A stretch of 63,395 nt of DNA, counting the filler, from Sphacelaria rigidula (lineage: Eukaryota): assembly GCA_964200075.2 (NCBI GenBank). It is 10 parts of 10 records of this genome, joined end to end, with 100 filler letters (N's around TTAATTAATTAA, not from the genome) between each part and the next. Parts side by side here need not be neighbours in the genome. Positions count along the whole stretch, not along the records: positions 50,798 to 57,046 come from CAXNAA020021236.1; 9 more parts are not named here. One strand, given 5' to 3'. The notes under the pieces are model-generated. The model did no database searches, was not told the DNA's origin, and saw only the letters and a program-made list of their open reading frames with translations. Shown here in pieces: positions 7,345 through 63,395 of this stretch; position 1 is the stretch's first letter, and the number at the start of each line of letters is the position of its first letter. The position numbers and the translations under genes are program-made.

Positions 7345-7640
7345 ACAAGGTTTTCGTGAGATAGAGAGTTGGGTGCGGATTGAAAGTGGCTTTGATCATT
7401 CGCTTTAACTTGGCCAATTTATCATTCCGTGTGCGCTTTTCTTCGTCTCACCACTGCCATGTGCTCACAGCTACACGCTGATATTGTACTCAGGGGTATC
7501 GAGGGCCTCAGTGGCAAGCTAGTACGGAGAGAACATTGGGCCTGGTCGAGGTGCGCTTCGGAACTGAAACGGCTCACTCACTAATTGACCGCTTTTCGCT
7601 CTCAATCATACCTTCAACTCTCAATTTCACGAAAACATTA
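7345..7640. mobile_element. MITE family C (~290 bp, TIR ACAAYGTTTTCGTGARAT.GAGAG)
   Basis: Inverted termini and shared core GGGCCTCAGTGGCAAGCTA. Other copies at 32263-32545 (opposite orientation) and 53671-53953. Confidence 0.7.
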
Positions 7641-30300: not shown

Positions 30301-33300
30301 CATAGTAGGTCATCTGTTGAATCGGCTTCAATGTCACTTGGAAAAATTATTCATGATCAAGATAGGTTGGTTGCCTTTGCGGCCAAGGGGTTTACCCTTT
30401 CAATGCGAGCCGTGGTCGAGTTGTAAATCGGTATCACTTTGACTCGAAAAAAGTGATCAAAAGCCAAGGGGTTTACCCTTGGATTCCAGCGGTGATCGGC
30501 TTGTGAATCGGCATTACTCCGACTGAAAAAAAAGGATATAATGATGCCGATTCAGTCAAAGCGTTCATGAGTTTTCCTGTGTATTTAAAACCTGAAGACT
30601 CGATAGCGTGGCCTGAACTGCAGCTGATGTGCTCGCTGGGTAGTTAGTACTGCATCAGTGGAGGTGTGGGGGCGGAGGGGGGAGGGGACGAGACCATGAA
30701 GGGATTAACTATGGCAAGTCTCGAACCTTCGACCTGCGCTATACATCAGTGAGTTAGTTGTCTTGCCCATGCAGCCATATATGACCAACCCATTGTGGCC
30801 AACAATTAGGGTTATTCGACGAACGCATTCCTGTATTTTCACCGGCTCTTTTTTAGCAGTGACTGAGGCATTCAACACCCGTGAACCCAAATCCTAACCC
30901 AAGCCCACACACCAGAGCTCGGACGGTGTGCTTGGTAAGATTCGAGGTTGATGGTGCAGGGATAGGTGCGAGATTGGCGTCCAAGCTAGACGGCACATTC
31001 GCCACCGCAGAACCGTCAGATCTGTGTGTGTATATATATATATATTATATATATATATCTAAGTCCACGGGTGCGTCGGTTCCTTTTTTTACGGTTCCAC
31101 TGGGGAGCAGAGGAAAGGCGAAAAAGGTCTTTGGAACAGTTCCGCCCGCCAATTTACCGCTGTACATGGGTATCTCAAACTCGAGGTTTCCTCGGTACAC
31201 CACACCCAGACCTGACAGTTTCCCGGTGGCGAATACACACCCAGACCCGCACGTACCGTGAATGATGCACACGTCGGACAGATTATCATCCGTCTGAAAA
31301 TTACTTCTTCGCAGTACAGTGATCCGGATCATGATCCGGATCATCTGACCCCACTTTTCCGTATTCGTTCCTTACCGTGCCGGACGCCGAGCACGCCGTG
31401 CAGCGCAAATGTTGTGCTTCGGTTTTTCTGATTCCGTAGTCACATATTTTTTGTTTTTAAACCAACGTATTCGAGACTCTTCCTTGATTAGTTGTTTTAG
31501 ATAGATCATGATCTGTCCAACGTGTGGAATGTTGTGATATTGCTACTGTGTACTGCCTACTATTGAACCCCCCCCCTGGTAAAGCCTGGTCCGGCGAGAA
31601 CCCGGCGTGCTCCGTCCCGGCTTTGTAGGGGCGGACCCCCGATGGGGTTGNNNNNNNNNNNNNNNNNNNNNNNNNNNNNNNNNNNNNNNNNNNNTTAATT
31701 AATTAANNNNNNNNNNNNNNNNNNNNNNNNNNNNNNNNNNNNNNNNNNNNACGACAAAAAAGAAAAAAAAAAAGGGGGGAAAAAAAAGGGGAGGAGGGGG
31801 GAGGAGAGACGCACTCAGCGCAAAACAAACTGCACGATCGTATCTCGTAAAATTTCGTGGTTCTAGAAAAAAAAATCAATGGGGTATCAATGAGAGGAAG
31901 CGTTTGCCTCATTCTATCATGGAAATCAATATGTTGGTTGTCGCATGAAAAAGCGTACAAAATTACCCCCCAGATCCGTTTTGTGTGATTTTTATTTTTT
32001 TCAGGAGAAGAGGACTCGTAGGCAAATACCAAGAGCTGTCCAAATTGGTGTTAGTTTTTCTCCTGAAAAAATCATGTCCCGAGAGAAAGGGAGCACTATT
32101 TTCATATTTTCGGACATGACAAAGAGGTGAGGAGGGAAAAGAAGATATCCACAAATGTCTCCGCCTGGAGACGAGGGGTTCAACGTTGTTCTTGAAATTC
32201 GGAACAACCAACCATCCTCACCCCGAGCAAAGTGTACCTACTACGTGGTGTGTGATACACTGACAATGTTTTCGTGAAATTGATTGAGAGTGAAAAGCGG
32301 TCAACGAGTGAATGAATCGTTTCAGTTCTGATATGCACCTCCGCGAGGCCCGATATTCTTTCTGTAGCAGCTTTCCACTGAGGCCCTTGATATCCCCGAG
32401 TAGGATATCGACGGGTAGCTGTCAGCATACGGTAGTCATGGAGACAAAGAAAATCACACACGGAATGAAAAATTGGCTACGTTAAAGCAAATGATCCAAG
32501 CCACTCTCAGTCCGCGCTCCGCTCTCAATCTCACGAAGACGTTGTTTACTCTAGAAAAAATGTATTACACGGACCACACAGTATTAGCAAACGGTGGCAG
32601 AGCACACCACAACTACACTGAAATATGACTACACATACCAACAGGGAGAAGGACCTGGAACATGGGAACGCGATCGCGATTCCCTCTTGTGGGGACGAGA
32701 AAAAAATATGTCGACTGCAAGTAAGTGTGAGAAATGGTGAGTATCTAAGGCACCGTCGAGGAGACTGGAGAACCCCAAAAGGTCGGAGAACCGAGTCCAG
32801 AGGTGGTTCATAATCACCTGCTGAATCTGTCGGACCGACCCTGGCAATTGTTGTTTACTTCGTAAATGTAAGCAACACGGTGTTCTACAACTTGATTGAG
32901 AAAAATATTCAGCGCTTATGAAGGTTCTCAACTTTCGTCCTAGAAAAAAAATCCTCCTGGCTTCGTAAAGTCCCGTGGCAAGCGGTTCATGTTTTTGTGT
33001 GGTATTAATGCATATATATATTATGTATGATTTACGCCATTGAAGAAGCAGGGTAAGTGCTAGGGTTTTGTTTTGTTCTGTTCTTCGTGATATTCCTGCC
33101 TTTTCCTTCCCATGTGTTCGCTCTTATATGTTCTCCCGTCTTTATTTATTCCGAAGAAGCGGTAATCGGTTGACTTTTTATCGCGCCTCTGTTGATTATA
33201 ATATTTTACCCTATTTGCAGTGCATTCGTCTGTTGTTTTAGAATTTTATCTGATTATCCACTGGTTTCTTCGCAGGTATTATCCCGTTGCTCGGGAGATC

Positions 33301-33662
33301 TAAGACGCCGTCCACCACAAGTTTTCAGGTTTATCTTTTTTTTGTGCGTGGTTGGTTGGCGACCTGAATCCTCATCCTTCATTATCAGACCGCGGGCCTG
33401 AATAACGTGGTTGATGCGACCTTCGAAAACACTTCAGGCTGCGGGTCTGAATGGAAAAGTTATTTCATTACTAAAACAACAATAAACAGGTTGGGCCTAC
33501 GCGAGTTTACTCGAGGTCTGTTAGGCGTAGACCTCTACCACTACGCCGTAGTGTGGTCCACGGTAGGCTTGGCAAACACGAAAGTTCGTCACAAGCCTGC
33601 CTCGCACCAGGATTTTTACCAAGCAGTGCAGCAGCAGTGGAAGCAGCAGCAGGAGCAATATC

Positions 33663-35861
33663 ATGGCGAGCCTCGTGAGTAGCATCCTCAGTAGCAGCGA
33701 GTCAACACACGAGAGTGTAGTGAGTAACCGTCCCGCCGCTCCCTCCCGACTGCAGCCACATGGCGATGATGTCTTCTTTACCCTGGCTCAGAACCTCAGA
33801 GATTTGCATTTACAGCTAGCACATGAGTCCCCGGACATACGCTCGCGGGTCGAGATAGAAGCACGTATTGGGCTCATATCCCTCCCCGACCGACTAGCAC
33901 GGGCCACGCCAAGCATCCCAGGTTCGGGTGCTGTGAAAATAGAGGCGGAGACTATGCGAGGCCAGGGTTTGAGGTTTGTGTCCGGCGTGAGCCCCCCTAT
34001 GTTTGCCTCGGTCAATGACTCGATCGCGCGGAGCTACAAAAAAGGACAGAGGCAGAGCACGGAGGTCGTGTATCTCTTCGACTCTGGTCCGCTGCAGGGG
34101 CAACGGGTAGTGGTTGACGGCGCCAAACCGCCTTATCGCGAGCACAAGCAATCACGACCGCCTATGAATTTCCAGCTGCCGGCTGCTGATTATGACCTGC
34201 GAGTTCATGCGTCGATCGAGAACCTTCCTGTGCTCCTACTTGGCCCCGATGGGAAACCTATGGCGGTGCCGGGAAACTGGTCTGGTAAAAGGACAAAGCG
34301 AAGGGTGTCCTGGGAATCCCCGCCAGATACGCCGCAAAACGAGGCGTGGTTGTGGAGGGCGGATTTGACGTTGGTAGAGGAGGTGGCCAAGGATTCGACG
34401 GGAAATCGGCGGACTCAGGTGGTGCGGGAGGTGGAGTTGGAGCTACTGCCGCACGTACGGGATTTATGGTTGGGGCTGAAGGACGAGAAGGAGGTGATAG
34501 CCATGACTTCCAAGATTGCTACGCATCTTTTTCATCTTTTGGAGGCGATAAACCCGATAGAAGAGCTGTCCGCTATCGCCAACCCAGTGCCGGAACCAGA
34601 CCAAGCAGCGAGGGCAGCAGCGAACGCGGCCTGCTTACAGCTGCGAGGTAACAGATCTGGGAAGGGTTCGAACTTCCCGGGGGCGCAGCCGGTTAACATG
34701 TGCAAACGGACCGTGGCGGACGTGCAGCGCAACTCGTACTACGTTGCCGAGAAGACGGATGGGGTGCGGTACCTAATGATATCGGTGCTGGGGTCGGCGG
34801 GAGCGACGTGCGTCCTCGTGGACCGTTCGGAGAACGTGTTCAAGGTCGACGGAGGCGCTTTTTTGGCGGAGGTGCTGGGGACAGGGACCGTTCTCGACGG
34901 AGAGCTGGTGCACAACCGCAGCATGAAAAAGGCCATATTCATGGCGTTCGACATCTTGCAGTACAAAGAAAGAATCCTCATGCCCCAGAACTTCATCGAG
35001 CGGCTGCGCGACCTGCGGACGGGTGTAATGCAGACCTACGCGCAACACATACACGGCGAGGGCGCCTCCCTCGAGCCCCATCTCATGCTTGTGATGAAGT
35101 CGTTCAAGCCTCGCCGAAAAATCATGGATCTTTTCCGGCACGTGAGCACCGAGGGTCGAGAGCGCGTATTCATGGAAGACAAAACGCGACACCATAAGAC
35201 AGATGGTGTCATATTCCAGCCGAATGCGCCGTACACCATGGGCACCGATACCAAGCTGCTCAAGTGGAAATGGATAGATTTGGCCTCAGTAGATTTGAAA
35301 GTTTACCCTGGATGGGGAGGCGGCGGCGGGGGCGGCATGGGCGGGGGCAGCGACCTTCGACTTTGCTCCGTGGCAAACCACAACGAAGAGGTGGATCTGT
35401 CCAGCATCGTCCACCTCGCAGATCACGACAAGGCGCGCCTCACGGCGGACATGGACGGCAAGCGCACGGTCATAGCGGAGGTTGCGCTAGATCCGGCATC
35501 CGGGTTATGGGTTTACATGGGGCTCCGGCCGGACAAGAACCGCCCGAATTTCATCAACACCGTCATAGCGACAATGGTTGAGGTGGCCGAGGGACTGTCG
35601 GAGGAGGAGCTGAAGTACAGAATGTTGGCGGACGCACCGGCGACGGACGACTGGGCGACGCAGGAGGCTACGATGCGCAAGCGAGCGGTACAGTGGCAAT
35701 ACAAACAGGCGGAGGGGGGAAGTGCAGGTGGCGCGGGGGGCGGGGGGCGGGGGGAAAATGGAGCGGCCGCGCCGGACAGGAGACGGAGTGAAACGAATGG
35801 GAAACGTGAGAGGTCGCCGTTGCCTGGTGGTCATGCCGTAAGTAGAGGAGGAATGTTATAA
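33663..35861 (+). CDS. Bifunctional mRNA capping enzyme: N-terminal Cet1/TTM (CYTH-fold) RNA 5'-triphosphatase plus C-terminal guanylyltransferase with OB domain; intronless, 732 aa
   Basis: TTM motifs EIEARIG (A), DLRVHASIE, RTKRRVSW, WRADLTLV and REVELE (C). GTase motifs FPGAQPV, I KTDGVRY, III VLDGELV, IIIa FMAFDIL, IV TDGVIF, V LLKWK and VI LRPDK. Uninterrupted ATG-to-TAA ORF. Confidence 0.93.
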   Translation: MASLVSSILSSSESTHESVVSNRPAAPSRLQPHGDDVFFTLAQNLRDLHLQLAHESPDIRSRVEIEARIGLISLPDRLARATPSIPGSGAVKIEAETMRGQGLRFVSGVSPPMFASVNDSIARSYKKGQRQSTEVVYLFDSGPLQGQRVVVDGAKPPYREHKQSRPPMNFQLPAADYDLRVHASIENLPVLLLGPDGKPMAVPGNWSGKRTKRRVSWESPPDTPQNEAWLWRADLTLVEEVAKDSTGNRRTQVVREVELELLPHVRDLWLGLKDEKEVIAMTSKIATHLFHLLEAINPIEELSAIANPVPEPDQAARAAANAACLQLRGNRSGKGSNFPGAQPVNMCKRTVADVQRNSYYVAEKTDGVRYLMISVLGSAGATCVLVDRSENVFKVDGGAFLAEVLGTGTVLDGELVHNRSMKKAIFMAFDILQYKERILMPQNFIERLRDLRTGVMQTYAQHIHGEGASLEPHLMLVMKSFKPRRKIMDLFRHVSTEGRERVFMEDKTRHHKTDGVIFQPNAPYTMGTDTKLLKWKWIDLASVDLKVYPGWGGGGGGGMGGGSDLRLCSVANHNEEVDLSSIVHLADHDKARLTADMDGKRTVIAEVALDPASGLWVYMGLRPDKNRPNFINTVIATMVEVAEGLSEEELKYRMLADAPATDDWATQEATMRKRAVQWQYKQAEGGSAGGAGGGGRGENGAAAPDRRRSETNGKRERSPLPGGHAVSRGGML

Positions 35862-42067: not shown

Positions 42068-43535
42068 TTTCCCCCGTCACATTTTATCATGACCGATCCC
42101 GCGTTGATTTTTTTCATTCAGGAGTTCACATTTTTTTAATCTGCGGCCGGTTACGGATGTTGGCGAACAAAGTGAAGCCTTCACGTGTACCGGAGTGCAC
42201 GCAGTAGTCAGTAGTTATATCCTCTGCATCTGCATCCACTGTCATGTACGTGCATCTGCATGTAGCCTCGAACCCTACAGTGAAGACGGGATAGTGCTGT
42301 GCTGTATTGGCAACGCACAGCCACCTATACTGTGCTCGCGAGTACAGCCCGTGCGTGTAACCTGGCACTACTGTATTGTCTGTGCTTGCAGAGTACAGCC
42401 TGCACTTGGACATGCAGGAGCACAAGGTTACAGCGCAAAAAGTGCCGGGGTTCGCGTCCAAGTCAGCTGAGTAATGCAAGAACGGGAAAACCTCAGTAAC
42501 CATCCTGGGTGAATCTGTCGTGTGCCTCCTTCTATTTGATGCGATGGCAACACAATCAAAATCACAAGACATTTCTTCAATGGCATTTGTTGGGAGCAGT
42601 GTCTCTCCTCCAAAAACCAGCTCGAAAAATACATGTGAGCACGCCACGTTTGGCAAACAAATGCACCTGAAATGTCTTGCTTTCATAATTGTATCGGTCC
42701 TAACTTTGAGAGTCTCTCGATGATGAACATCGGGGTCAAAATGGACAACCCCCCTTCGCATGACTCTGAACATCTATTGAAAATGATCGCACAATTTAAG
42801 GGAAACGGTAAGCACGTAGAAGACGAAACGAAAAAAATGTGAGTATACAGCAGCGACAAACGCATGGAGGACCGAAGAAGTATCGAAGTCCAGCCAGCAC
42901 GAGTCAATGTTGAGCACGACGGAAAACACCCAATTCGATCGTTCATCATCCGGTGGTGCCGTGGATGACATTTTGTTTCTCGAAATGATGCGCACAGTAC
43001 ATCCTGCACGATGTGGACTTTACGGTATAACAGTAGTACAATGCAGTGTCAGGGTGTTACAGCAGGGCACATGAGTATTCACAAGTACAGGCCGTGGATT
43101 TTGCGAACAGTACGACATTACAACAACAGGCTGTGCTTCACAAACACGGCACAGCTGTAGGCTGTACTTGTAACCTTGTGCTCCTGCATGTCCAAGTACA
43201 GGCTGTACTCTGCAAGCACAGACAATACAGTAGTGCCAGGTTACACGCACGGGCTGTACTCGCGAGCACAGTATAGGTGGCTGTGCATTGCCAATACAGC
43301 ACAGCACTATCCCGTCTTCCCTGTAGGGTTCGAGGCTACATGCAGATGCACGTACATGACAGTGGATGCCGATGCAGAGGATATGACTACTGACTACTGC
43401 GTGCACTCCGGTACACGTGAAGGCTTCACTTTGTTCGCCAACATCCGTAACGGGCCGCAGATTAAAAAAATGTGGACTCCTGAATTAAAAAAAATCAACG
43501 CGGGATCGGTCACGATACAATGTGACGGAGGGAAA
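42068..43535. mobile_element. ~1.47-kb element with ~360-bp near-identical terminal inverted repeats
   Basis: 42068-42432 is the reverse complement of ~43169-43535 with only scattered substitutions; ORF pairs 42126-/43176+ and 42195+/43020- mirror each other. Termini read TTCCC(T/C)CCGTCAC. Confidence 0.85.
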
Positions 43536-45945
43536 AAGCAGTGTTGTTCCTTTTCAATATGATGGAGGCATTGTACGGAAATTATAATTCATCATCCGCG
43601 GGGTCAATTGGAGACGGTCATACTCTAAGGCCTGACATATGTTGAGACTAGAGGGGCAGACGTCCTTGGAAGAGAGGTCTCCACATCAGCACGAATACCT
43701 GGCGCTACAGACCAGCTTTCGCGCGTTTGACAGCCAGATGGAAAATGATGCATATCACTACGAATGTAGAAAGCGCTTATTGCACGATATGTATCTGCGC
43801 AATTTAATACCCGAGGGAGTTGACACTGTGTGTTCCTAGTGCCAGTACAACGAATACCGTAGAACTGACTGTACGATGCGAGCCGCGCCTGGACAGGGGT
43901 AGAATACCCGCGGTCCATTCGTGAAAAAAAAATGCAAGTCGCACTCTGTCCTATTCTGAAACCAAGTGAAAACTCTGCACAGGGGTGATCACGCTTGCCA
44001 GGGAAAGGTGAATATCTTCACGTGGGAGCACACCACGGAAGAATATCTGATTGATTCTGATAGAAAAAAAACTACAGCAACTACCCCTTTCATTTCAGAC
44101 CATCGTGGTAACGCCCACGCCAAGTCTGGCACTGTGAGGGGGGAGACGTTGCCCCCTGCCCGAGCAGGTCCGCAGTGGTCCTTGACAAAGGACACCCATC
44201 TCCTTGGCTGCGTTGTGCGGTCGCGTCTTGCTCGGCACGGCGTGTAAAACTCAGGGGCATCTGCCTCTAACATATGGAGAACCTTCACTAGTGGTTACTT
44301 CCGGCCTTGGTGCCAGCCTCGACCAACAGGGGGCCGATGTTTTCAAGANNNNNNNNNNNNNNNNNNNNNNNNNNNNNNNNNNNNNNNNNNNNTTAATTAA
44401 TTAANNNNNNNNNNNNNNNNNNNNNNNNNNNNNNNNNNNNNNNNNNNNAAATGAGTACGCCCCCCCCCCCCAAAAGTGCATGTTTTTGGGGGGCAAAATC
44501 TCCACGTAAATCGAAATGGGAAAAACCGAGCACAACGAGCAGCTGGGGATTCCCACGCTTGGGTTCTTGCTCTAGCCAGTGTCGCCAATATGAAGCGCTT
44601 TATGCAGCCTGAACACAAACATCAGGCGCTGTATGGCCATTTTTTTAGTGACACTTATGGGCTGGTTTTTTGGGGGGGCTATCGTAGAAAGTGTCAAAGC
44701 ACCCCCTACATACCAAATACCACCCCCGGGTGGAATTGTTTCGGTTCCCAATGTTGTTACAAAGGGGTCGCATACATCGTCAACTACGACACTCGCAGAG
44801 GTTTGTTATCATCCCACCTATTCTGGACGCCAGTCTACACCTTTCGGCACTGTATGTGCGGGCGAATCAGCCGGGATCACACGGGAGGAAGGCAAACGCA
44901 CGAGCTTTTTTTTTTGCTTCTTGTTTTTTATTACTCCATCTTTCTTCTGCGGCGCTTGCCTTACCTTTATCGCGAGAGGTGTTCAGCGAGAGGCTGGCAA
45001 GTTTGGCTCCATGTAGTGCAAACATTTCAACCCATTCGGCATCATCATTATTTTCTGCCCACGCTGTATGTTACGTATGACACCCCGAGACAATGAGAGG
45101 ATCCCATATGGCTCTTCTCTGCGATAAGCAAGGCCGCTCCCGCACCGGCCATGAACAAGACTGCCATTTTGTGGAAAGAGTGCGAGGGATGAGATATGTC
45201 CGAGGACACACCTTTGGGGTGCTCTCGGCATAACAGACGAAGGGAGACGACGCCAATGTTCATACGCAACCACTGCCGCGAGGACGCAGTCATCTTCCAT
45301 TGGTCAAGAACAAAGCGACGCACAACGTTTGATGCACCCCTCGTCGCGTTAACCCTTCAAACAGTACGGCTGTGTAACTCCTCGAAGATTTGATGGGACG
45401 AAAAAGCCCTGTACTGATGCTGGGCTGTAAACATCTCACGATGGAACTGGAACATACACTTTGTCATGAAACTGGATGGCAACACCCTAAACAAAGCTCC
45501 GGATGATTCATAGTGAGGGTTACCCTATACCACAACTGGGTGGGAAGGAAAGTACGTGGAGTTAGGTTCACTAAGAAGTAAGGGGGAGAAAAAAAGGACA
45601 ATCGAGTTTTCGAGTGGTGGACAAAACAGGGCGCGAATATTTTCATTGATCAAAGGCAGCTTGGTCGGCAGCTATCGGGAAATCCGAAAAATTGGACCGA
45701 AGTTTGCCTATGGATACAAAGTGAGACCGAACGTGTATATGATATCGAACTCAGCAGCATGTCACGGGTACAAGGTTCCATACCGTATACAATTTCGACC
45801 TCAGTTCGTCCCAGTAGAAAACTCTCGCTCCCATTTTCCAGGATCACCTCATAGCTGATGACACCCACGGTCTTCAGTTTCATCAGGTCTCAATGTTATT
45901 GCTGGTCACGTGTTTTTCTCAATAGTGGAGTGAAAAAATACGCAC

Positions 45946-50438: not shown

Positions 50439-51071
50439 AAAGGATGGTCCACATTTCTGGTGAAACTCCACGGGCCAGGCGCTAATTTTGGCGTCATGCT
50501 TTTGTTATTCATACTTTCATCTTTAGGTCTCATTTCTAATCCCTCCCCTTCCTCGAGACGCGTCCGTGGTCTCAAGGAGTCAATCCTTATCTGTCACAAC
50601 ATCTGTCAACATACTTCCTCTGTCCCATAAGTAAAGTCTGTTATGGGCTTTTAATCGTTTATGCATTCACACTCTTCCGATCATCCCATAGTTGGGTNNN
50701 NNNNNNNNNNNNNNNNNNNNNNNNNNNNNNNNNNNNNNNNNTTAATTAATTAANNNNNNNNNNNNNNNNNNNNNNNNNNNNNNNNNNNNNNNNNNNNATC
50801 ATGAGTGCACCCCCACCCCCCACCCCTTGTTCTGTGCGAGTTGGTTCGTTCCCTGCTTGCCTGTGTTTCATGCAGCAGTACAGTAGTAAGAAATACATGG
50901 GGAGGGAGGGGAGTAAAACTATCAACAGTCGTTATGGTCAAAGTCTCAAATATCTCAATAACACGTCGTTAACGGTACAGTTGGAAAACAACACTTTTTT
51001 TCCTTCATGCTTTGTAAAAATACCTTTCCATTCATTGCTTTGTCTTCTTCCCTTCTCCTTTCCTCACGCAG

Positions 51072-51762
51072 ACGAAACACGCACAATAGCGGCCCACCCC
51101 TCCAATTCGAAAGACGCTCCCGCGGCAGGATCGATGTTGCTTCCGGGCAAGAAACGCGCTAGGCTCATGCCACCCGATTCAAGGACGCACGAAAAAATCA
51201 CACCCGAGGCCGGTAAGAGCACGTGCTCTGCTGTGATAGGATCCAACTTCATGCTTTTTTTTTTTTTCGTTTCTCCCTTTTCCTTTTCTCTTTTTGTTCC
51301 ACGATTTTTTTCTTCCTTCTCTTCTCTCTTCTCTCTTTTTTTTTCTTTCAATTTTTTTTTTCCACATAACGGTATGATCGTTTCGGCTGTTCGTCGAATG
51401 CATATTGTATACCCCGCCACGGTAGTGTGTGTACCTGAAACATTGTCGAAGAGGTTATTAGGCTGGAGTTGACGGGTCAAATCCCAGCAGGTACTATATA
51501 TATTTTTTTTTGGGGGGGGGCAGGAGCGTCTGATTTCCGTTGTGAAAAAGACGGGGGCGTGAAGAGATTTGACTCTTTTGGACGAAAAATCGACGTGATG
51601 CCGAAATGTCAGCGGCACGACGGGAGAAAGATGCACTGAGTGATGCCTTGAGAGTACAGACCCGTTCCAATAAAGGAGAGGGGTTGGAGATGTGACGACA
51701 TCGTTTTGTATGAATATGTATATTCCATATTCCAGTACAGTGCATGTAGCCTATCACCTCTG

Positions 51763-51793
<31 letters not shown>

Positions 51794-54700
51794 CATACAG
51801 TAGGGACGGTCCGCAAACCCTTGGCTGTTGAAGGGCCGCATGTATAAATACTGACACGTGGTGTTGTGTTCTTTCGTGTGCTTTCCGCTGGGGGAAACGG
51901 GGGCGTGGGGGAATCAGTGCTGGCGAAGGCGGAGGCGCGTCGAATTCGTACAGTGACGTTATCGGACATCGAAATGCGACGAGACTTTCAGGCGATCATC
52001 TCAGACTGGCGAGAGCGCGCCACCCAGTACCTCGCCACATACAGTGAGTTGCATTGGGGGTTCCAGTATGGTATAATTTTCTAAAGTGTGGGGTCCCAAC
52101 ACAGGGCGGTCGTCTCAAGTGTGGGCCTCCCACCCCATTGCGGATATCTAAAGCGCGCGGTCCCACAACAGTGCGGTCGTCTCAAGTGTGGCCCGCCTAC
52201 CTCAGTACGGTTATCCAAAGTGCAGGATCCCACAACAGTGCGATCCTCTGAAGTGCAGGCCCCACACCGCAGTGCGATTATCGAAGGTGCGGGGTTCCAC
52301 CATAGTGCGATCATCTGGAGTGCAGGGTTCCACCGCAGTGGGGTCATCTCAAGTGCGGGGTCCCACCGCAGTACGGTGGAAATCGCCCGTCAAAAGGTCT
52401 ATCCATTTTTACTATATTAGTATTTACCAAGGTATCGCACTGTACCAGTGTAGTGCATGCTGAGTTGGCGATCCACTGCACTATGCTAGGACCCTTACTG
52501 TATGTTGACCTGGCTCTTGTTGGGTGTTGACACATCTCAAGATGGTTATACGTCGTAGAGCGATATAGTGGAGGGTACCTGCTCGCTGCAATGGTAGGAG
52601 TCGTACATGAACGTTTTGGATTCGAATGGGAGGTAAGCCATGTTGTCCATGATGATGATGATGATGATGATGATATTCAAGTTGCCCATAATTTTGCTTT
52701 GTTGATTTCAAAATTTGACCAGCCAAAACCCTCATTTTTCTACACCGTGTTTGAATATGTATTTCCTCAAAACTATGCACAGGCAAGGCGAGTTATCCGC
52801 AGTGTGCCCTGCCCCCCCCTCTCCACCACCGACTCTCATATGTCCTTTTTTTCTTCTTTTCGCTTTTTTGGGTGCTAGATAAATCATGCTTCGTCTCGGA
52901 AGGGATGCGTGGTCAATGGTCAAACGACCAAGGCAAGCAACAATGAGGACCCCCCCCCCCCCCTACTCTCATATCCCTTTTTTTTCTCTCGTTTTTTTGG
53001 GGGCCAGATAACTCGCACTGGACGAAGGTTACCGTGTACCAGCACAGCAGTTCCTTCCGTGTGAAGGGTGTGACGTTTTCGAAGGGGGACCCGGTGGTGG
53101 TGAAGTCAAGGGTCACAGGGGAGGAGTTTCACGGAGAGATTACGGTGGTGAAGCCGAAAGCGGTGAGTACTGCTTTGACACTCTAGCGACTAGTTCTTTG
53201 ATCCACGAACTGACTACTTGATTCATTGATTCATTGATTAGTGGGAACCACCACATAGAGGGGGAAATTTTCACAAGTGTCCGCCGAGGAGTCACCTTTT
53301 GACATTGGCGACACCATGAGATAGTTCGTACGCTTTATAAATTGAAGATCCCGGGTTCAAATCTCGGCTCCCACCAAAAACGCTACTTGAAGTCAAGTCG
53401 GGACAAAAGAGGCGCGAGAATGTTCGAGGAAGAGACAACTGGTGGGAGAAGTCGAAGCACAATTCACTGACCCACCGGGAAATCTTTCAAGATTGTTGGG
53501 TAGGGGTCCCAAAACGTGTAAAACGCATGTGAAGAATGGTGTACATCCTCACCGCTAGCCGGCGAATTTGGTTTCTCTATAAGTATTTCTCATCAACAGA
53601 ACGAAGGAAGGTTCTGACAAAAGGGGCAGCTGATGTGGGTGCCACCACGTAGCCATGAGGGAAAATTCCCACAAAACGTTTTCGTGAGAGAGAGAGAGAG
53701 TAGAGCGCGGACTGAGAGTGGCTTTGGCCATTCGCTTCAACCTGGCCATTTTTTCATTCCGTGTGTGCCTTTCTTTGCCTCCATCACTATTATAACGTGT
53801 GCTTACAGCTTCACGTCGATATCCTTACATCAAGGGCCTCAGTGGCAAGCTACTACAGAAAGCGTATCGGGCCTCATGGAGGGGCATTCCGGCACTGAAA
53901 TGATTCATTCACCCATGGACCGCTTCTCACTCTCAATCTGACGAAAACGTTGTTACCAGTGTCCGTCGAGGAATCACATGTTGTTGTTGTGGTTGTTGTT
54001 GTGGTTGTGGCTGTGGTAATTGTTGTCGAGAGCTCAAGGTCGTTCGAGTGTTGGCGTGTACTCCAGCCGTTGAACTGGTGCATAGGTTTACCGTTGCCGA
54101 GGGAGCCCGAAGCGGGTGCGTCTGTCCGAGCAAGGGGCATGGCAGATTGGTGGTGAGCTGGGTAACTGTTGTTCCTCTTCGGGAGGCTGGTACGGGTCTC
54201 CCGGGGCTGACGCAAGTCGAAAATATATGGTGCAGGGAGGCTGTTGTATCTCAATGTACAGTAGTGGTCGGGTTAGGGTTGGGGTTAGCTTTTTCGCTGT
54301 ATACTAATAGTACGATACCCCCAGAGGGTTATGGGCTCTCGCCTCTCTGATACAGCAGAGTGCTCTGTCGATAGAGCTATGACGGCGCTTTGAGGATAGG
54401 ACATTGCTCACGAGAGCTGACAGAGAACATCCCAGTGCTTCGCACGTACACTGTTCACATGGAAAGCATTTGATGGATCTGTAGCAGTTCATATTGCCGA
54501 TCCATCTACAGATGGTGTAGCCCTCCGTGCGAGATTATGCCTAAGTCACCTGTTTACAGTTTGTGGTGTGTTGTACAGTCAAGCTCACATTCTGGGAGCT
54601 TGATGGCATCGTTGGCTTTGAGCTTGGGAGTAAACATAGCTCTCTGGCTCCTAAGGTACACAGACAGTTCAACAAAATCTCCTACAGCAGTCTAGCCGAC

Positions 54701-55846
54701 ACCCGAGGAACTTTCCTCGTGATCAGAAGTTTCCTATGGACAGGACCCGTGGGTCTTGTTCTAGGTAAAACGATGAGGACTGTTGGCTTCGCATAACGGG
54801 AACCCACATAACTAACCAGTTATGACGGCGTCGAGGGCTTCACGTCAAAACTAAAGAAGAAAAGATCTCAGATCATGCGACTTGTGTTTGCTGCTGACTA
54901 AGGCCAAGGCAACGTTCAATTGTTTTCGACTGCTTTGCTCTCATGTTCTCGTGACATTCGCTGTATAACCGCTGTCTTCGTGCTCCCAATTCAACGAGAA
55001 AGCAAAGAAAATCACGGTGAAAAATCCCCCGCCATGAACAGGCTTTTGTGGTTCGGGTTCCCGTTTGAAGTTTTCCATGATCTTGAAAAGGCTTTTGTGG
55101 TTCGGGATCGACACCCCGCGAAAAAAGAGCCAGTTTGACCGACTTTCGATGGCCAGAACACGCGCCACAGGTATCAGATGACACCCAAACCTGAACGGTA
55201 ATGTACCGCTGCGCCTTCTTCGTGTGCTGCAAAAAGAAGCGCGGGATAAAATGCCTTACTGCCGGAGAAAACTCTGCGAAAACGATGAAAAATGTGAAAT
55301 GATACATGCACCTGTAGACGTGCTCGGGTCACATTTCATACGTACCCGGGTCAGATTCTAGACTTGCTCGGGTCATCTTACAGGCGTACCCGAGGCGAAA
55401 TAACGGAAAGAGCAAACACTCGTACAAGCATCCATCTGCTGTTTAGATACACTTTGACTGCTACACAAAAACGCTGTCATTTTCTACGATGCCGCCGGAA
55501 AGCTTCTTGTCCCGAATTGACCCGCAATAATCGCCGATCGTCCCGCACAGCGAGTTCGACGGACTTCGTTCGCAGTTTTTGTTTTGTGTTTGCGAGCTCG
55601 TTTTCTCGCCGACCTGTTCCGCAACAAAACGCGGAATTACCCCGCTAACGACAATTGATTTGCTCGGTATTCCTTTTCCCTGTTTCTTCTTTTCTCTTTC
55701 CCCCCCCCCCCGCCGCCACCCCCGTGATTCGATTTGAGCAGATATTTTTGTCCCTGTACGGCGATGTAAAGACGCGAATTTTTGTGGACCACATCAGCAC
55801 GGGACGGCTCACCGTGGCTCGAGCAGACCTGAAAAGTGCCCAATGA
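51072..55846 (+). CDS. Sds3/BRMS1-like (Sin3-HDAC complex subunit) protein; last four exons 51072-51212, 51918-52043, 53008-53162, 55742-55846
   Basis: All four exons have AG/GT boundaries and splice in frame (phases 1,1,0) to ...KKRARL...TLSDIEMRRDFQAIISDWRERA...FRVKGVTFSKGDPVVVKSRVTGEEFHGEITVVKPKA|IFLSLYGDVKTRIFVDHISTGRLTV...*. This resembles the 'ExDIxEDxxxI' helix and C-terminal capped-Tudor-like domain of Sds3. Family assignment is from recalled similarity; exon structure is read directly. Confidence 0.7.
52083..52377. repeat. Intronic minisatellite, 9 degenerate units of 33-34 bp
   Basis: Consensus ~AAGTGCGGGGTCCCACCGCAGTGCGGTCRTCTC repeated head to tail. Confidence 0.85.
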
Positions 55847-58356
55847 CAATTTTCAAGAAGCACCAGAAGCAACAGCAGCAGCAGCAACAACACAGCACAA
55901 AGAGCTAATTTTAGAAGTTGGGGATCCACGGCGTGGCTCAGGAGAAATTGAAGAGAATTCTGAGGACAGGGGTGTTCCTTAGCTTGTAGTGTGGCAGTTG
56001 GGCAACAGCAAACCGTAGCAGCAACAGCAATACCCGATTTATTAGATCGCAATCGGAAGCGGATTGTTGGTTTTGGTCCATGCATGCATGCACTCATTGA
56101 TTTGATTGTTGGTACTGTGTGGTTATGTTTGGTATTCAATCGAAGCGGCGTACGACATATTCCGGTTGTATTCATCCAATCAAAATCGTTTGTGTCGGAG
56201 CAAAACGCGAACGCAAAAACAAAGAAAAAAAAAATATATATATATATATTTTTAACGGTAAAACGTCAAGTTTCGTCTTGTAAGGCCGACATGCGTTTTT
56301 TGGTTTCTGTTATTCTCAATTTCACCAAGAAAGTATTCGAATTATACACATCCTCCTCCCCTCCTTTATATCCGCATGTACACGACAAGGAGAATTTCGC
56401 TCGAGAGAAAAAGGGAGAGGGGGAAATGGGTAAGGAAGAATAGGGAGGAAAGAGAGAGGAAAGAGGCAAAGACTAGGAATCAATGGGTGACAGCAAGTCT
56501 GAAGCACGTAGAACACGACAAAAAAAACGAAGAGAGTGTCAAACCAAGCATATTAAACCGGATAAATATCTTGGGCTTTTTCATCAGGAGGACCCTATTT
56601 TTGGAACATATTACTTGGACGCCTTGCGACCTTCATGCTGCGGGTGCGGTGCGGTTGGGGCGGTGCAGGCAAGCCTCGTCAAGCTACGGTGTCCTCGCCT
56701 TCCGTGCAGTTCGCAGCTGAGCATCCGTGGTGGTTACTGTTAAGGGGTATGATTTGTCACACGTGAGGCAGGTGAAAGATGAAGAAATGTCCAGGCAAAG
56801 CTTGGATTTCTCTTGTGCATGCAGTTGAATTTAATCAGGAAACTGTGTGCCAGTCTCGCCTGTTTTGCCATTCTTCTTATTTTTGTGTCTGCGTGCGTCT
56901 CTCTGGTGCTGGTTGATGGAAGCCAACCATGGAACCACTTCCGGGGGGTGTGTCTCCTCACGTTCGGGCGGCAAGCACACGCAACGAAAGTATGCATCAG
57001 GGGGCGGGGGGTGGGGGAAGGCGTGTACTCATGATGTTGCATTCCGNNNNNNNNNNNNNNNNNNNNNNNNNNNNNNNNNNNNNNNNNNNNTTAATTAATT
57101 AANNNNNNNNNNNNNNNNNNNNNNNNNNNNNNNNNNNNNNNNNNNNTCCGTCCCGGCTTTGCAGGGATGCGAGGTCAATGGTCTCATGACTATGGCATGC
57201 ATGATCGTGAGTACACCCCCTATCGTAGCATCACTCGAGGAAGCATCGATAATCTGTTGATGGGCAGCAAGTCAAAGCCGTATGAATGTCCCCAAATATG
57301 GTTTGTGTCGCAAATATACACGCGCACGTCTGTGTGGACATACCAACGACCAAGTATCATTCACAAGAAACTTTCTTGGGAAAAACATTGGCGGAGGAAG
57401 GGACAGGGATATAATGTCCATGCTGTGTCCGTTGACTTACTCTAGTTCTACCTGCGTTGACTGCAACCCGCAGCAAAAACGTTCGTGAACAATGAATCGA
57501 CCTGCATGTTGCCCGCTCGAATCGGATGCTCACGACTTGCCACCGGAAACAGATATGCTTTCGTACCCCCTCCCCCCCCCTCCCTCAACGAATAAATGCA
57601 CACTCCCGACGGGTCACACGCGCCGCACTTGACTACAAGATAATATTTACCACGAAAGCGATCATTCCTTGATGCGAGAGCATCCAGAGACATTCGCGTA
57701 GCAAACATATGTCACGAGCATCAACAATACAACAAAGGGTAGCAATGAAAAATACAAAAAGTGCACATCAGAACAACGTGATGAACCTACACATTTTCCC
57801 CACAGAGCGCAAATTTACGGCACATCGACTGTACCAAGAGAACAAGCAAATACGTTCAATCCTCTATCGATGCTATTTATTTTAGACGCCAGTCAAAGCT
57901 GGTGAGGAACCCCGTCCGCACGTGTCACTGTTCAAGTGTAACTCTCTAGCGTAGTCACTAAAACGAAGTCATGTCCTGGATAATTGAAGCTCTTCAAAGC
58001 ATTCAAGTCTCACCAGCATTTTTTGCACTATCAACAAGTTCTAGTAGAGAGACTTGTATTGGTGAGAAGTTCGAATGGCTCGCGAACAGTATCGGAAATA
58101 ATTGAGCAGAGGGAAAGAAGGATACGTTACGTGCTGTTCTGCACGCCAACTTCGATTGCTGTCGTCGTCGCGACCAGAAGCGCGGCCTTGCTAGGTAATC
58201 ATATTCGTTGAACCTGATCTCAGCGATCCATAAATGTTCGCAAATCAGCAATTACGAGGCGTTGCCTGAACACCCGAACCATTGAAATCATGGCCATAGT
58301 TTCCACCGACGACGGCTGATGCTTCCCAACCACAACCAAACCCGACAACATCGTGG

Positions 58357-61300
58357 TTAGTCCGTCGGGTCCTGTGAGCCTGCCGCAAGCGTCGCTCCAT
58401 CATCGAGGTTAAAGCTGACACCGTCGGGGAGTACGTTGTCGACGACAAGGGTCTCCGTGGCGTTGTCGAAACGTAAAGATTCGATGCCAACGAAGACATT
58501 TTCTGAGATTTCGTTGTCGTCCGAATCAGTTACTGCAACTCCATGGCTTTCCACCGGGTAAGAGATCTCGTTTTGCCGGATGGTGTTCAAGCGCGGGCGG
58601 CCGTTCCAATCAGCCGACACCTGTCGATGAGGATGCGCAAGAATCGGGCGGGATGTGCTCGGGTGACGCATGCTGTACGCGTGGTATCCCTCGGAAAAGC
58701 CATTCCGATGTGGTCTATGTTAAGGTGGTGCCGGTAACAAGGCTAGAGCCAGTTCGTCAAACACAGGAAGAACCCGTAGAATCCGTGAGGAAAAGACGAT
58801 GGCAGCATTTTCCTCGGCATCACGAGTACAATCTTCCCCCCGTACTATTGAGAACAGCGTCACACGACGCAAAAGGCTATTTGCTGCGCTCCTTCCCCAG
58901 TGGAATGATCTGTGTGACGCCTCACCTCCGCCTCATCGCTGCCCCGATAGAAGAAAACGCCATACCGTGTGTGGTTTGACATCACGTTGTCGTACACATC
59001 GCTTTCCTGCGCCCCCATGCTGATGCGGACGCCGTACTTGCCTCCCTATTTTCCCGGCAGAGGCAGGAGAGGTGCGGGTGAGACTCCGACAACATCTACT
59101 TCCGAACTTGGTAAAACAGATGGCTCAGGGTTTTCCAACTCGCGCCCAAGTGTTTCGGATATCAAGGCGTTCGTCTCCCGGGCACTCACCTCCATGACGT
59201 TGTCGTGGATGGTGACCCCCGTACATTCGAAGATGCCGAAGTCTCCCTCCGCATTGCGCCTTGCTGTATTGTTGTACGCGTCAGCGTAGTCCGTAGAGCG
59301 ATGGAAAAATATGCCAGCGCGAGCATTGTCCTCGACTACATTGTCGTGGACGAGGGCTCTGCAGGAGAAGCGCGTGGGTTTGGAAGAGTCCAGGTATGAA
59401 GACATGACACAACGGCATGCATGCGCCTGAGTTTTTCCCAAACGATTCCTGACAAGTCATCGTCTACGAAAATTCCTGCAGCATTGCCAAAACGTGAATT
59501 ATCACAGTAGACATAACCGAGCACCGAACATGGGGTGGCGACAGACTTTGTTTACATTGATAAAACCTCTCACCCTGCACAGCGCTTGCTGTACTCAATG
59601 CCGTGCCACCCGTTGTCGTGCACCTGGCCAACACCATTGCAGGAAACACAACGCACAAACCCGCACAGCAAATGGGATTGACATCAAGTGTTCAGGAACA
59701 GGATAGAATGTCAAGGAGGGAGTCTATCGTGGGAGCAGCAGCAGCAATATCATTCCAGACAGACAGTGGTCGCCATCCAGACGAAAAGCAGGCAGGAGAC
59801 AAAGCAAAGCACGCCATTCTACAGAGAAAAAACCCTCGAGGGTTATTGCCGGGGTCTCACGTGGTTGCGCGTGAGGGTCATGTAGTCGCTGTTGTCCTGT
59901 GGGTTGATGCCCACGAGAGAGTTGTTGTAAATCTCGTTGCCACTCCACACAGAAGAGCCCTTCATCCCGTAGCAGTCTGTTGTGGGGGGACACAGAGGAG
60001 ACACTACGAGTGAGTCGGGATTGCAGGTAGGGCGCAGACTTTGCCCAGGAGGGGAGTTGTCTTCCGTAAACTGCAGAAGGAGCATTCTAGAAAATTGTGC
60101 AGTGACATGTCTCCTTGGAAAGTTATGATGAAATGGTTCTTGTGCGTCATACACGAGGTCATAGTAGGGTATAGCGTAGGAGTATCGGGCATCTTCAAGG
60201 CTCCCCATCTAACCGCGATTTCTCCAATGATTTCCCCTTCTCAGGCGGCACTGAGAAAGAGTAGTAATGGACACATACGACGTACTGTAACTCATGACCC
60301 GCCTTCATCTTCGTGACATGCAGAAACAAGGATACCGAAAGATTGCAGTAGTCCAACCGTGACGATATTGTAACTTCCACTCGTGAGATACGGCTCCGAT
60401 TGCCGTCAAGACAAACATGTTACGAGGCGATGTTGCAGAACTTCTGTTCGCTCATCGTTTCATAGCCCGCACTGTTTTTATCCGTGTATCCGTATAGGAC
60501 TGCTGCGAGATAGAAATCATGTTCCACTTGCGTATCGCTTCAGACTCAGGACTGCTATCCATCCACCGACCAAGTTATCTGAAGTAGAACAGGATAATAA
60601 CCGCGTGTTGTGTAAAACCATAAGATCAATGTCTAGGAGGAGGCCGTATAGCTCTCAACAAGACCGAATGGGGGAGAGGCAGCCTCCACAGGGTAGTGAT
60701 ACTTCCGCTGTCATGATCACGTTAAAGAGGACAAATGTTGCTCGAATGAATCGCTACCCCGGGACCAAGATGTCGACCAGCGAATAAGCCAACATTGTTC
60801 ACTGGCACTGTATCGCAGTACATGAAGGCAACATACAACTCGGCGACTCACATGCACCGATATAATTGTGGTGAATTTTGCTGTCTGTGAGGGAGCCGTA
60901 CACCCCTACTCGATCGAAAAGTTCCAGGTCCCCCGGGAAGCGGTCGTCGTAGCCCAACACCTTCCACAGAAGCCCGAAGGTTGAGTCTGACGAAAACCAC
61001 ACGAACGGGTACGGGCGACGCGCAAGGAAGTGATTCGGATGCGGCAAGGTCGGAAAAACCACAGTACGGCATCGCCTGGCCGTAAACAGACGCGGCTGAT
61101 GAGGCGAAGTGTGAAGTGGTGGGAAAATTCCCGCTTCCGGGCGGAAGGTATCTCACATCAACGTATATTTGCGATTTCAATTTTTGGGTACAGTGTGCAG
61201 TTGCCATCGTCTCAGGGCAACTGCAAAGTTGCGGAGATACAGTGACCCCGGTAGACTCCGTCCTCTACGACGCGCATGGTGAACAAATTCAAATATTGAT

Positions 61301-61657: not shown

Positions 61658-61889
61658 CTGCGAGTGCACAACCGACGTCGAAAGGGGGTAAGAAGGGTAC
61701 TTCTGAGCGCACCAGCGCTACTGCTTCGTGTACATTGTGGGCGACGGTGGCCGAGGCACTTCATAGATGGCGTTACAGGTGCAGTATCGAATCTGGCGCA
61801 ATCGTGCTGCGCGCAACGGTTATTGAAATACCTAACGACGCGATCGGCGCGAGGTTGCAGTAGGCCTTCGGGCTAAGATATGTGTAATG

Positions 61890-62039
61890 TTTTTGTGTAA
61901 TGTATGGGAGAAACGTAATGAGCACCGGAATGTTGGAGGTGTATCCAATAGGAGTAGGAACGGTGCTCCGTCTCGAAAGGGAGTCGTCGTCTATATGATC
62001 AAACGACTAAGGCAAGCAACAAGTGAGTACCCCCCCCCC
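61890..62039 (+). mobile_element. 5'-truncated 3' end of a probable non-LTR retrotransposon ending TGAGTAC + poly(C) (longest copy)
   Basis: Decayed frame FLCNVWEKRNEHRNVGGVSNRSRNGAPSRKG...QTTKASNK*. Copies with the same 3' end and variable 5' ends at 52887-52949(+), 63322-63387(-), 44449-44459(+), 57147-57220(+), 57001-57046(-) and 50798-50826(+); fragments at 6114-6157 and 31607-31630. Confidence 0.65.
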
Positions 62040-63395
62040 GCCCCGGCATAATACGGAGGCGAGTGAAGCGTTCGCAACAACTACACATCCCTTCAAAAGT
62101 GCAATTCCGATTCAAGGCCGAAATGAATACAATCAAGTTATTACACCCCAGCACAGAGCACTGTGCGGGTCGCTCAAACTTTCATCAACCTCTAATCCGG
62201 CGCACGCGTGAAGCTCGAACTGAACGCCCTTTGTATCTCTGCTTAGGGTCCAGACACGACCATCGGCAGCATTCCCCATATAAACCTACTTACAATAAAG
62301 ACAGTGGGAACCATCTGAGATGGAGACGTGTATGTATTGCATCGTCGGAAAAAAAGCACCACACAGAAGCGTACAGGACCCCCCAAGGGAATTCTGGGGG
62401 AAAACATTATCGTATTCTAAATGGGGAAGGGCACTCCGTACTAGTCGCCATGTCTACGTGCCGAAGACATGCACAGTATTGGCGATACATTGGTCAGAAG
62501 CGGTTGGACCAAGGGAAAACATAGTATTGGGGCACAGTCTCGGATTCGCTGCACATACGCACCCCGAAGAAAATTTCCAGCGAAAGGGGAGCGAAACGGT
62601 TACATCACCGCTGGCTGGTATGGTTGCCCTGAAACATCTGACATGAGACCACGAAAGGCCTTGGTACTGAAGCCTGTACTGTGCCAGGAGAGACGTTTGA
62701 AGACTAGACACGATTCCTCGGGTCACGGCGTTAGTTGGGGGATCGCTTCGAGTGAAGTTTTTTTCTGCCAACGAGTGCCACCACGATGGTGGATGGGTTC
62801 GTGGAATAATGTTCGCTGTTGACCGATTTCTCCCCTCAGAACTCCCCAGTGTAGGCTTCCACCGTTCTCAGAAAGTGAGTGCGGATCGCTTTAGCAATCG
62901 GTTGCCCGTGATGACTGCGTTTTCTCTTTGACTAGCCATCCTCGCGTCAAAATCCATCTGATCTTTTGCGGAGACTTTATCTCTTTTGTCCGTATCAAGT
63001 GGTGGTCGCACCCTAACTTGGTCTTCTTCCCATCTTCGGTCCGCTGCTGACCATCGACCGGCACTCGACGATCAAAGTACTATTTGACACTTTCTACCAT
63101 AGCCCCCCCCCCCCCCCCAAATGCATCGTTTTGAGAGACAAAATCTTCACGTAGATCGAAATGGGAAAGGCCGAGACAACGAGCAGCTGGGAATTCCCAC
63201 GTTTTGGTTCGTTTTAGCCAATGTCGCCAATATAAGGCGCTTCATGCAGCCTGAACCCAAACATTAGGTGCTGTATGGCCATTTTTTTCGTGACACTTTT
63301 GGGCTGGTTTTTTGGGGGGGGCGTACTCATTTGTTGCTTGCCTTAGTCGTTTGACCATTGACCACGCATCCCTTTCGAGACGGAGCTGTTTTCTT

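Follow-up and report, generated by a model that had tools for sequence, protein, structure and literature searches.

How does a gene stay intact when a mobile element enters one of its introns right before an exon, and why does the sequence of that intron-exon boundary then occur twice? The question is raised by intron 2 of a conserved gene of the brown alga Sphacelaria rigidula, in which 63 nucleotides (nt) from the end of a long interspersed nuclear element (LINE) lie between two copies of the end of the intron. The DNA analysed here (the window, 63,395 bases) consists of ten pieces of 6,249-6,250 nt, which are separate contigs of a fragmented assembly; they are joined by nine N44-TTAATTAATTAA-N44 spacers (6251-6350, 12601-12700, 18951-19050 and onward), across which features cannot be read. 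The locus lies in the ninth piece (50798-57046). The duplication around the repeat fragment is confirmed as a real feature, and it probably results from the insertion of a 5'-truncated LINE by target-primed reverse transcription, which would have duplicated 54 to about 79 nt of host sequence, including the splice acceptor.

Logan contigs of four sequencing runs (X1, X4, X6 and X7) were aligned to the whole of piece 9. X4 belongs to a second study, separate from X1, whereas X6 and X7 come from one study; none of the runs is recorded as RNA and the RNA nature of X6 and X7 is only guessed, although both hold spliced contigs. The features of the locus are as follows.

51917-52043, plus strand: exon 2 of the host gene, with the donor GTGAGT from 52044 (joints in X6 and X7; translation matches S. 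rigidula protein P0001)
52044-53007, plus strand: intron 2, 964 nt, GT..AG (joint skipping 964 nt in X6 and X7)
52807-52831, plus strand: C-rich leader CCCTG-C8-TCTCCACCACCG, candidate target or priming run, directly left of the core duplicate
52832-52885, plus strand: left copy, consisting of ACTCTCATAT, pyrimidine tract, decoy TAG (52876-52878) and ATAAATC (repeat search, alignment)
52887-52949, plus strand: fragment of a 5'-truncated LINE, comprising the final 63 nt of the coding end and encoding ...APSRKGCVVNGQTTKASN (tblastn, copy alignments)
52950-52963, plus strand: C14 run, being the LINE's poly-C tail, into which C's of the target may have merged (C-rich run at all LINE ends)
52965-53014, plus strand: right copy, consisting of ACTCTCATAT, pyrimidine tract, working acceptor CAG (53005-53007) and ATAACTC (alignment, spliced contigs)
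53008-53161, plus strand: exon 3, NSHWTKVTVYQHSSSFRVKG...VVKPKA, conserved across brown algae (joints 52043 to 53008 and 53161 to 55741)

The duplicated host sequence

A preliminary description of this locus had proposed that two diverged copies of one host sequence bracket the insert, and on this the sequence, a repeat search and shuffled controls agree. The direct-repeat search recovers two pairs that are in register, 52817-52854 with 52950-52987 (79%) and 52849-52885 with 52978-53014 (78%). Aligned locally with gaps, the 120-nt flanks on the left and right of the insert score 59, compared with 16.0 +/- 2.5 (maximum 31) for dinucleotide shuffles, and none of 2000 shuffles reaches 59. If only the core without the C-runs is compared (52832-52885 with 52965-53014), the score is 53 and that of the shuffles 17.0 +/- 3.1, again with none of 2000 reaching it; the match between the two copies therefore exceeds what low complexity would give. 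In the core, 43 of 54 aligned columns are identical. The copies differ by seven substitutions in 50 aligned bases and by three indel events, all of which fall in homopolymer tracts, and they have the non-repetitive words ACTCTCATA and AGATAA in common.

The duplication holds the 3' end of the intron together with the first seven nucleotides of the exon, of which ATAAATC in the left copy is the duplicate, and it brackets the insert exactly, as the sequence and the alignment of the flanks confirm. The left copy ends at 52885 and homology to other LINE copies starts at 52887-52888, so that a gap of 1-2 nt is left, with an A at 52886 that may belong to either host or element; on the other side a single base separates the end of the C14 run (52963) from the right copy (52965). 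The further proposal that each copy begins with a C-run holds less well. The C-rich leader aligns only loosely with the right-hand C14, TCTCCACCACCG has no counterpart on the right, and the right C-run, which had been taken as a host copy, is at least partly the tail of the element itself (read-data consensus ...AAATGAGTACG, then at least 18 C).

An independently built X1 contig covers 52918-53563 with no other letters and one gap, and an X4 contig covers 52950-53563 with two other letters. The left junction of the insert is not among the contig pieces listed.

Identity of the inserted fragment

On sequence comparison, the insert is the last 63 nt of a LINE that encodes an apurinic/apyrimidinic endonuclease (APE) and a reverse transcriptase (RT) in an open reading frame (ORF) of about 1360-1380 amino acids (aa), 5'-truncated by more than 4 kb. 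This assignment follows from a protein match and from the ORF ends of two longer copies. When the relative P0015 is compared with the window by tblastn, its aa 1340-1359 match 52882-52941 (85% identity, E 7e-5). In the contigs L001 and L006, 66 nt corresponding to the insert form the end of a long ORF, which is followed by TGA, GTACG and a C-run. The ORF of L006 has 1,382 codons (nt 999-5144 of the reverse strand) and ends in ...GAPSRKGCVVNGQMTKASNK, TGA, GTACG and C13, and the tail of L001 is C10. The preliminary description had read the insert as a retroelement 3' end; L001, L006, P0015 and P0018 bear this out and specify it as the C-terminal coding end of a LINE with APE and RT. The insert has lost its stop codon through a 1-nt deletion relative to other copies.

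Metagenome contigs scanned for a 22-nt stretch of the insert gave two matches, L001 and L002, and the latter was discarded as an unrelated chance match. Contigs of prokaryote genomes gave one match, a 5,259-nt contig in a bacterial bin (L003/L006; contig C43 of G001), and viral contigs gave none. The full-length LINE copy in this bacterial metagenome-assembled genome probably reached the bin as contamination from the host.

A protein search with the C-terminus of L001 found eight relatives, and all five that were fetched share the ...KASNK end; among them are two full-length proteins (1,360 and 1,328 aa) and one S. rigidula model. P0015 and P0018 share the C-terminus encoded by the insert. Pfam finds RVT_1 in both (E 9.8e-31 and 1.7e-32) and, N-terminal to the RT, Exo_endo_phos (residues 170-392, E 3.4e-12, and 142-383, E 8.1e-15, respectively); the 63-nt insert itself holds no RT, and these domains are known from the full-length relatives. 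Human L1 ORF2p is the nearest solved structure to the RT (E 6.6e-21). The protein clusters that match P0015 are only generic RT/endonuclease ones, with taxa mostly unrecorded.

Within the window, the insert matches 63382-63331 on the minus strand (96% over 52 nt), 6121-6155, 61999-62022 and 57163-57183. Its longer matches are 63386-63314 on the minus strand (91.8% over 73 nt) and 61964-62043 (83.8% over 80 nt), and shorter pieces resembling it lie at 6114-6157 and 57163-57220. The window copies have their 3' end in common with full-length L006. Their 5' truncation varies: 63 nt remain at 52887, about 170 nt at 61869-62039, about 70 nt in the 63386 copy and only the tail at contig ends.

Several other identities were considered and rejected. 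L001 and L006 show the end of a LINE ORF, which excludes that the insert is a complete SINE-like unit (short interspersed nuclear element) of about 66 nt or a part of a miniature inverted-repeat transposable element (MITE). A tandem duplication of the element plus its flank is rejected because what precedes the left copy bears no resemblance to the LINE (724 of 2000 shuffles are as good); likewise, tblastn with the LINE protein finds no match in 52380-52830, nor in the intron upstream of 52882. Finally, a reading of the left C-run as the tail of an older LINE is not supported, since the 22-nt match at 52560-52581 is equalled in 32 of 1000 shuffles and tblastn gives no match. An Rfam search of the whole of piece 9 at E <= 1 returned nothing, so the insert does not correspond to any known small RNA or ribozyme. 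Four folds of the RNA of the LINE 3' end have z-scores of -0.8 to -2.0 and provide no clear evidence of structure.

Two additional observations concern the LINE end. In three of the five window copies whose 5' junction is visible (52887, 6114 and 63386 on the minus strand), the 5' truncation lies within 1-2 nt of one point (T/GCTCCG), and in the fold predicted for the last 66 nt GUGCUC pairs with GAGUAC beside the tail; the LINE may have a preferred point of truncation or processing. At 57147-57225 and 31610-31650 the LINE end belongs to a diverged subfamily, in which GAAA after CCGTCTC is replaced by the longer GGCTTTGCA. This replacement shifts the frame while the neighbouring nucleotides stay similar, and the subfamily may be non-coding or a dead lineage.

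The host gene and its splicing

Of the two copies of the acceptor, the downstream one is in use, as had been proposed. X6 and X7 hold one long contig each (2,354 and 2,124 nt), both with the same three GT..AG joints, 51211 to 51917, 52043 to 53008 and 53161 to 55741. The exon that had been placed at 53008-53162 is real and starts where it was predicted, while the spliced contigs put its end at 53161, one base earlier. Use of the decoy acceptor would lead to an in-frame stop after 21 codons. The corresponding junction, 52043 to 52879, is absent among the 15 of 115 joints that were listed, and since Logan contigs drop rare variants, these joints are silent on rare use.

The peptide of exon 3 (53010-53162) is 100% identical to P0001 and has 12 homologues at E <= 0.01, including proteins of Ectocarpus, Ascophyllum, Pylaiella and Undaria, to which it is 78-88% identical. 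The description of the exon as Sds3-like was not upheld. The best match to PF08598 (Sds3), which lies towards the N-terminus of the Ascophyllum orthologue P0005, reaches 22.9 bits (E 9.9e-5) against a gathering cut-off of 25.4; the orthologues P0008 and P0010 have no match to this family at E <= 10 and the exon-3 peptide has none at E <= 1. The host gene encodes a conserved brown-alga protein, for which the sequence leaves a weak resemblance to Sds3 possible.

Apart from the two duplicates (the right one for the most part), the C-rich leader and the LINE fragment with its tail, intron 2 contains a minisatellite and an (ATG)n repeat. The minisatellite (52080-52377) has a 33/67-nt unit in about 9 and 4.3 copies with 67-76% matches, and the (ATG)8.7 repeat lies at 52649-52674. 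Intron 3 (53500-55400) is filled with other highly repeated sequences, with a summed contig depth of up to about 4.6e5 in X1; these are common to 4029-4494, 7344-7608 and 32257-32543, and the ORFs there have no Pfam domain.

The poly-C tail and the abundance of the LINE

All nine visible LINE 3' ends continue into a C-rich run, which ranges from 5 to more than 14 C; seven of these ends are in the window (52942, 62022, 63331 on the minus strand, 44450, 57206, 50800 and 57033 on the minus strand), the others being L001 and L006. In the read data, contig ends that extend past 52943 have the consensus ATGAGTACG followed by at least 18 C, with an agreement of about 0.68-0.70; it is drawn from 579 contigs of X1, 495 of X4, 91 of X6 and 66 of X7.

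The LINE is clearly very highly repeated. As many as 25,788 contigs from X1 and 21,436 from X4 were placed on the 6.2 kb of piece 9, and the summed contig depth of X1, which is not a copy number, peaks in the bin 52888-53096 at about 3 million, compared with 55-70 in single-copy bins. Contigs 8, 9 (both ends) and 10 (both ends) start or stop in the LINE tail, and the LINE probably causes much of the fragmentation of the assembly. The contig ends concerned (44449, 50798, 57046, 57147 and 63395) lie in the tail or in a variant, ...ATCATGAGTACAC plus a C-rich run. Gene models are affected as well: the S. rigidula model P0017 combines a lipase (PF01764) with the C-terminal part of the LINE ORF, joined via an older LINE end and its C-run, and this chimera is a gene-model artefact caused by the LINE.

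A literature search for poly-C-tailed non-LTR (long terminal repeat) elements found nothing relevant; Repbase and Dfam were outside its scope, and the result is not proof that the LINE is undescribed. A text search of the brown-alga genome preprint (10.1101/2024.02.19.579948), whose supplements were outside the scope, found no passage on this LINE.

C-runs as possible insertion targets

Sites elsewhere in the window provide information about where the LINE inserts. A MITE-like repeat of about 250 nt, with terminal inverted repeats GACACTTTCTACGATAG plus a C-run (a G-run at the other end), is present in four copies.

63086-63322: MITE-like repeat
44460-44696: MITE-like repeat
12348-12599: MITE-like repeat
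15414-15678: MITE-like repeat

Two of these four have the LINE tail at one end in place of the outermost 17 nt, and the remaining copies serve as empty sites. The tail is located exactly at the C-run (44449-44471) or at the G-run (63314-63386, minus strand), in each case oriented so that it coincides with the C-run. At the 63386 copy, 9 nt of 5' flank precede the contig end, and seven of these nine match the bases right after the tail, which hints faintly at a duplication that begins at the C-run. Upstream of many 5'-truncated copies, the read data likewise have a C-run as majority consensus, at place 52892, with an agreement of only 0.44-0.47. In addition, a Sphacelaria protein model, ...DQKAS-PPP-CLKAFLHGPMD..., passes from a LINE end through a C-run into a second truncated LINE.

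For the 63.4-kb window, 24 runs of at least C8 are listed, counting both strands. A chance abutment of the leader and the left copy is therefore unlikely, and we estimate that a C-run would be expected within about 25 nt of the duplication by chance in well under 1% of cases. Judged from these sequences, C-runs look like preferred targets of the LINE. The proposal that it targets intronic C-runs is thus favoured as far as the association with C-runs is concerned, which is seen elsewhere too, but the association is not specific to introns, as it extends to the C-runs of MITE-like repeats and to the tails of older copies.

A separate observation is that in L001, just past C10, and at 57220-57232 of the window the C tail is followed by TATC(AT)CGTAG, which resembles the other strand of the inner part of the MITE-like terminal repeat (CTATCGTAG).

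How the duplication may have arisen

In the mechanism that we favour, a poly-C-tailed LINE with APE and RT would have entered intron 2 by target-primed reverse transcription in a single event. The first nick would have been made in the bottom strand, either at the C-rich run that lies about 65-80 nt before exon 3 or immediately past it, and reverse transcription of the C-tailed RNA would have stopped after the last 63 nt and the C tail, leaving a severely 5'-truncated copy. If the second nick, in the top strand, fell 7-8 nt inside exon 3, the fill-in of the staggered cuts would duplicate 54 nt, or up to about 79 nt when the C-rich leader is counted, and this stretch would hold the pyrimidine tract, the AG acceptor and the first seven exon bases. 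The downstream copy would stay joined to the exon, and the upstream copy would become a decoy before LINE sequence with an in-frame stop. The insertion would work like any APE-type LINE insertion.

Two variants fit the locus. Either, as had been proposed, the G-run of the bottom strand would prime on the C tail, in which case the duplication would start inside the C-run and the right copy would have lost TCTCCACCACCG, or the nick would lie at 52831/52832, where no loss is needed; priming would then proceed without base pairing and the C-rich run would matter only in the choice of the site. The order of the nicks, priming at the C/G-run and the origin of both copies at the time of insertion are what we infer, whereas the anatomy of the locus, the nature of the element, the splicing, the compatibility of the ages and the tie between the LINE and C-runs are seen in the data.

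In favour of this mechanism are the geometry of the locus, a duplication far above chance and the abundance of the LINE, which makes its insertions frequent. The ages of the insert and the duplication are compatible with this mechanism. Compared with the majority consensus of four other copies, the insert has four substitutions, one more at the ambiguous tail boundary and one deletion in 66 nt, which corresponds to a divergence of 6-8% along one lineage, whereas the duplicate copies differ by 14% (7 in 50). The divergence between the copies is about twice the one-lineage value of the insert and thus fits two copies that were identical at insertion, so that both could date from one event.

Several results weigh against a staggered-cut insertion. 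The age comparison rests on about five and seven differences and has a wide error; it provides compatibility, not proof. The 12 nt TCTCCACCACCG present in the left leader are missing from the right copy, and consequently either a nick after the C-rich run without G:C priming or a later deletion has to be assumed. Significant flanking repeats were found in none of the three other copies searched (61964, 6114 and full-length L006): the flanks of the 61964 copy score 16 (shuffles 16.7) and those of L006 score 19 (shuffles 17.9), and a by-eye flanking match of 25-29 nt, about 62%, at the 61869-62044 copy is not significant. Furthermore, a C-run seems to adjoin the 5' end of many genomic copies directly, which implies duplications that are short or hidden in C-runs; the locus at 52887, where the C-run lies 54-66 nt from the 5' junction, would then be atypical. 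Lastly, no joint that skips the insert, as an empty-site allele would give, is among those listed. The interpretation given in the preliminary description is partly supported, namely at its core, but unproven.

The main rival is that a tandem duplication of the C-run plus about 66 nt already existed and that the LINE later entered the left edge of the second C-run, making a duplication of its own that was short or is not visible. Because the LINE occurs at C-runs elsewhere, landing at the start of the second unit would be no coincidence, and the C-run that many copies appear to carry directly at the 5' end speaks for this order of events as well. However, the insert has no residual C's on its left side (...ATAAATC-A-TGCTTCG), the right leader must also have lost 12 nt, and two events are invoked where one suffices. 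An older duplication would also be expected to have diverged further, whereas the divergence of the copies is twice that of the insert, within the wide error already mentioned. We consider this order of events unlikely. That the C-rich run abuts the duplication as at other sites of the family, that the tail is intact and that the duplication is clean also speak against an endonuclease-independent capture of LINE cDNA at a double-strand break or stalled fork, in which the duplication would stem from synthesis-dependent repair or template switching and not from two staggered nicks. L1 insertions captured at breaks usually have no duplication and are marked by deletion of target sequence and by 3' truncation, and for this reason such a repair-mediated origin is disfavoured. 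It would account for the shortness of the fragment (63 nt plus tail), for the lack of visible microhomology between the tail and the start of the core duplicate and for the failure to find a long duplication in the three other copies searched; even so, it appears improbable.

The region is rich in T- and C-runs and the LINE is so repeated that contigs break in it, and a chance similarity of pyrimidine tracts or an assembly artefact via the repeat could be suspected. This is very hard to reconcile with the shuffling results and with the matching of the non-repetitive words ACTCTCATA and AGATAA; moreover, the insert with its tail measures only 77 nt and carries private variants, and the X1 and X4 contigs cover 52918-53563 and 52950-53563 independently. 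We regard an unreal feature as highly improbable, and staggered-cut LINE insertion remains the explanation that we prefer.

Comparison with known LINEs

The Sphacelaria LINE resembles L1 in several respects. Its full-length relatives encode APE and RT, the RT being nearest to L1 ORF2p among solved structures, and the copy in intron 2 is, like L1 insertions, severely 5'-truncated, with a homopolymer 3' tail and a flanking direct duplication. L1 targets have an A-run at their left edge, and in Sphacelaria a homopolymer, the C-run, takes the corresponding place. In contrast to L1, the tail is poly-C and not poly-A, a single long ORF of about 1360-1380 aa is present, and this ORF ends 5 nt before the tail, so that there is almost no 3' untranslated region.

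The duplication had been called far longer than usual. This is correct in relation to L1, for new human insertions have duplications of 9-18 bp in the data cited from 10.1101/522623 and the one described here measures 54-79 nt, but it does not apply to LINEs in general. In a mutation-accumulation preprint, the Dualen-4b element of Chlamydomonas is given a median duplication of 900 bp, and a duplication of 126 bp is cited there for R9 of rotifers (10.1101/2022.05.23.493040). What the Sphacelaria locus shares with these two, as that preprint presents them, is duplicated host sequence on both sides and a wide stagger between the cuts; it differs in that the long duplication is seen at only one locus. 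The same text invokes a second, restriction-like endonuclease (RLE) for Dualen, whereas Pfam shows only the APE-type endonuclease and RT, not RLE, in the two full-length relatives of the Sphacelaria LINE.

Another comparison is offered by the APE-type LINEs Waldo, Mino, Kibi, Koshi and Dong, which are listed in PMC3812793 as targeting ACAY, AC, TC, TTC and TAA repeats. The Sphacelaria LINE is similarly associated with one kind of simple repeat and has a 3' tail of the same repeat. The repeat in question, a C homopolymer, is missing from that list, and strict site specificity does not follow, because copies occur in unique sequence as well, for example in intron 2.

What does this locus tell us, then, about the element and its host? 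The locus itself is a tidy example of a known process, and the poly-C-tailed LINE is the more unusual part. Staggered cuts astride an intron-exon boundary would re-create the boundary downstream, keeping the gene intact and leaving a decoy with a premature stop behind; intron 2 is useful as an illustration of this and does not establish a new principle. A LINE that is poly-C-tailed, associated with C-runs and almost devoid of a 3' untranslated region is not found among the simple-repeat-targeting LINEs enumerated in PMC3812793, and through its abundance it apparently shapes the Sphacelaria genome and breaks up the assembly. We tentatively suggest, as a possibility that falls somewhat short of likely, that it represents an undescribed and extremely abundant LINE lineage of brown algae with a templated poly-C RNA tail, homing to C-runs and a loosely placed second-strand cut. 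If homing to C-runs is true, each insertion would plant a new C-run, so that the LINE would multiply its own targets and break short-read assemblies, and it would be a system in which the coupling of tail sequence, primer pairing and endonuclease choice could be studied. If the second-strand cut is loosely placed, some insertions would duplicate tens of bases, in this case a whole splice acceptor.

Other features of the window

The remaining features lie in other pieces of the window.

8330-10801, minus strand: ORF of 824 codons, full of PPR repeats
33567-35858, plus strand: ORF of 764 codons with mRNA-capping-enzyme domains
59049-59456, minus strand: ORF with a weak right-handed beta-helix match (PF13229, 20.4 bits, cut-off 25.9)
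42068-42432 and 43169-43535: inverted repeat pair of 367 nt, 96.7% identical, with arms about 740 nt apart
1364-1489: self-complementary stretch of 126 nt (87%)

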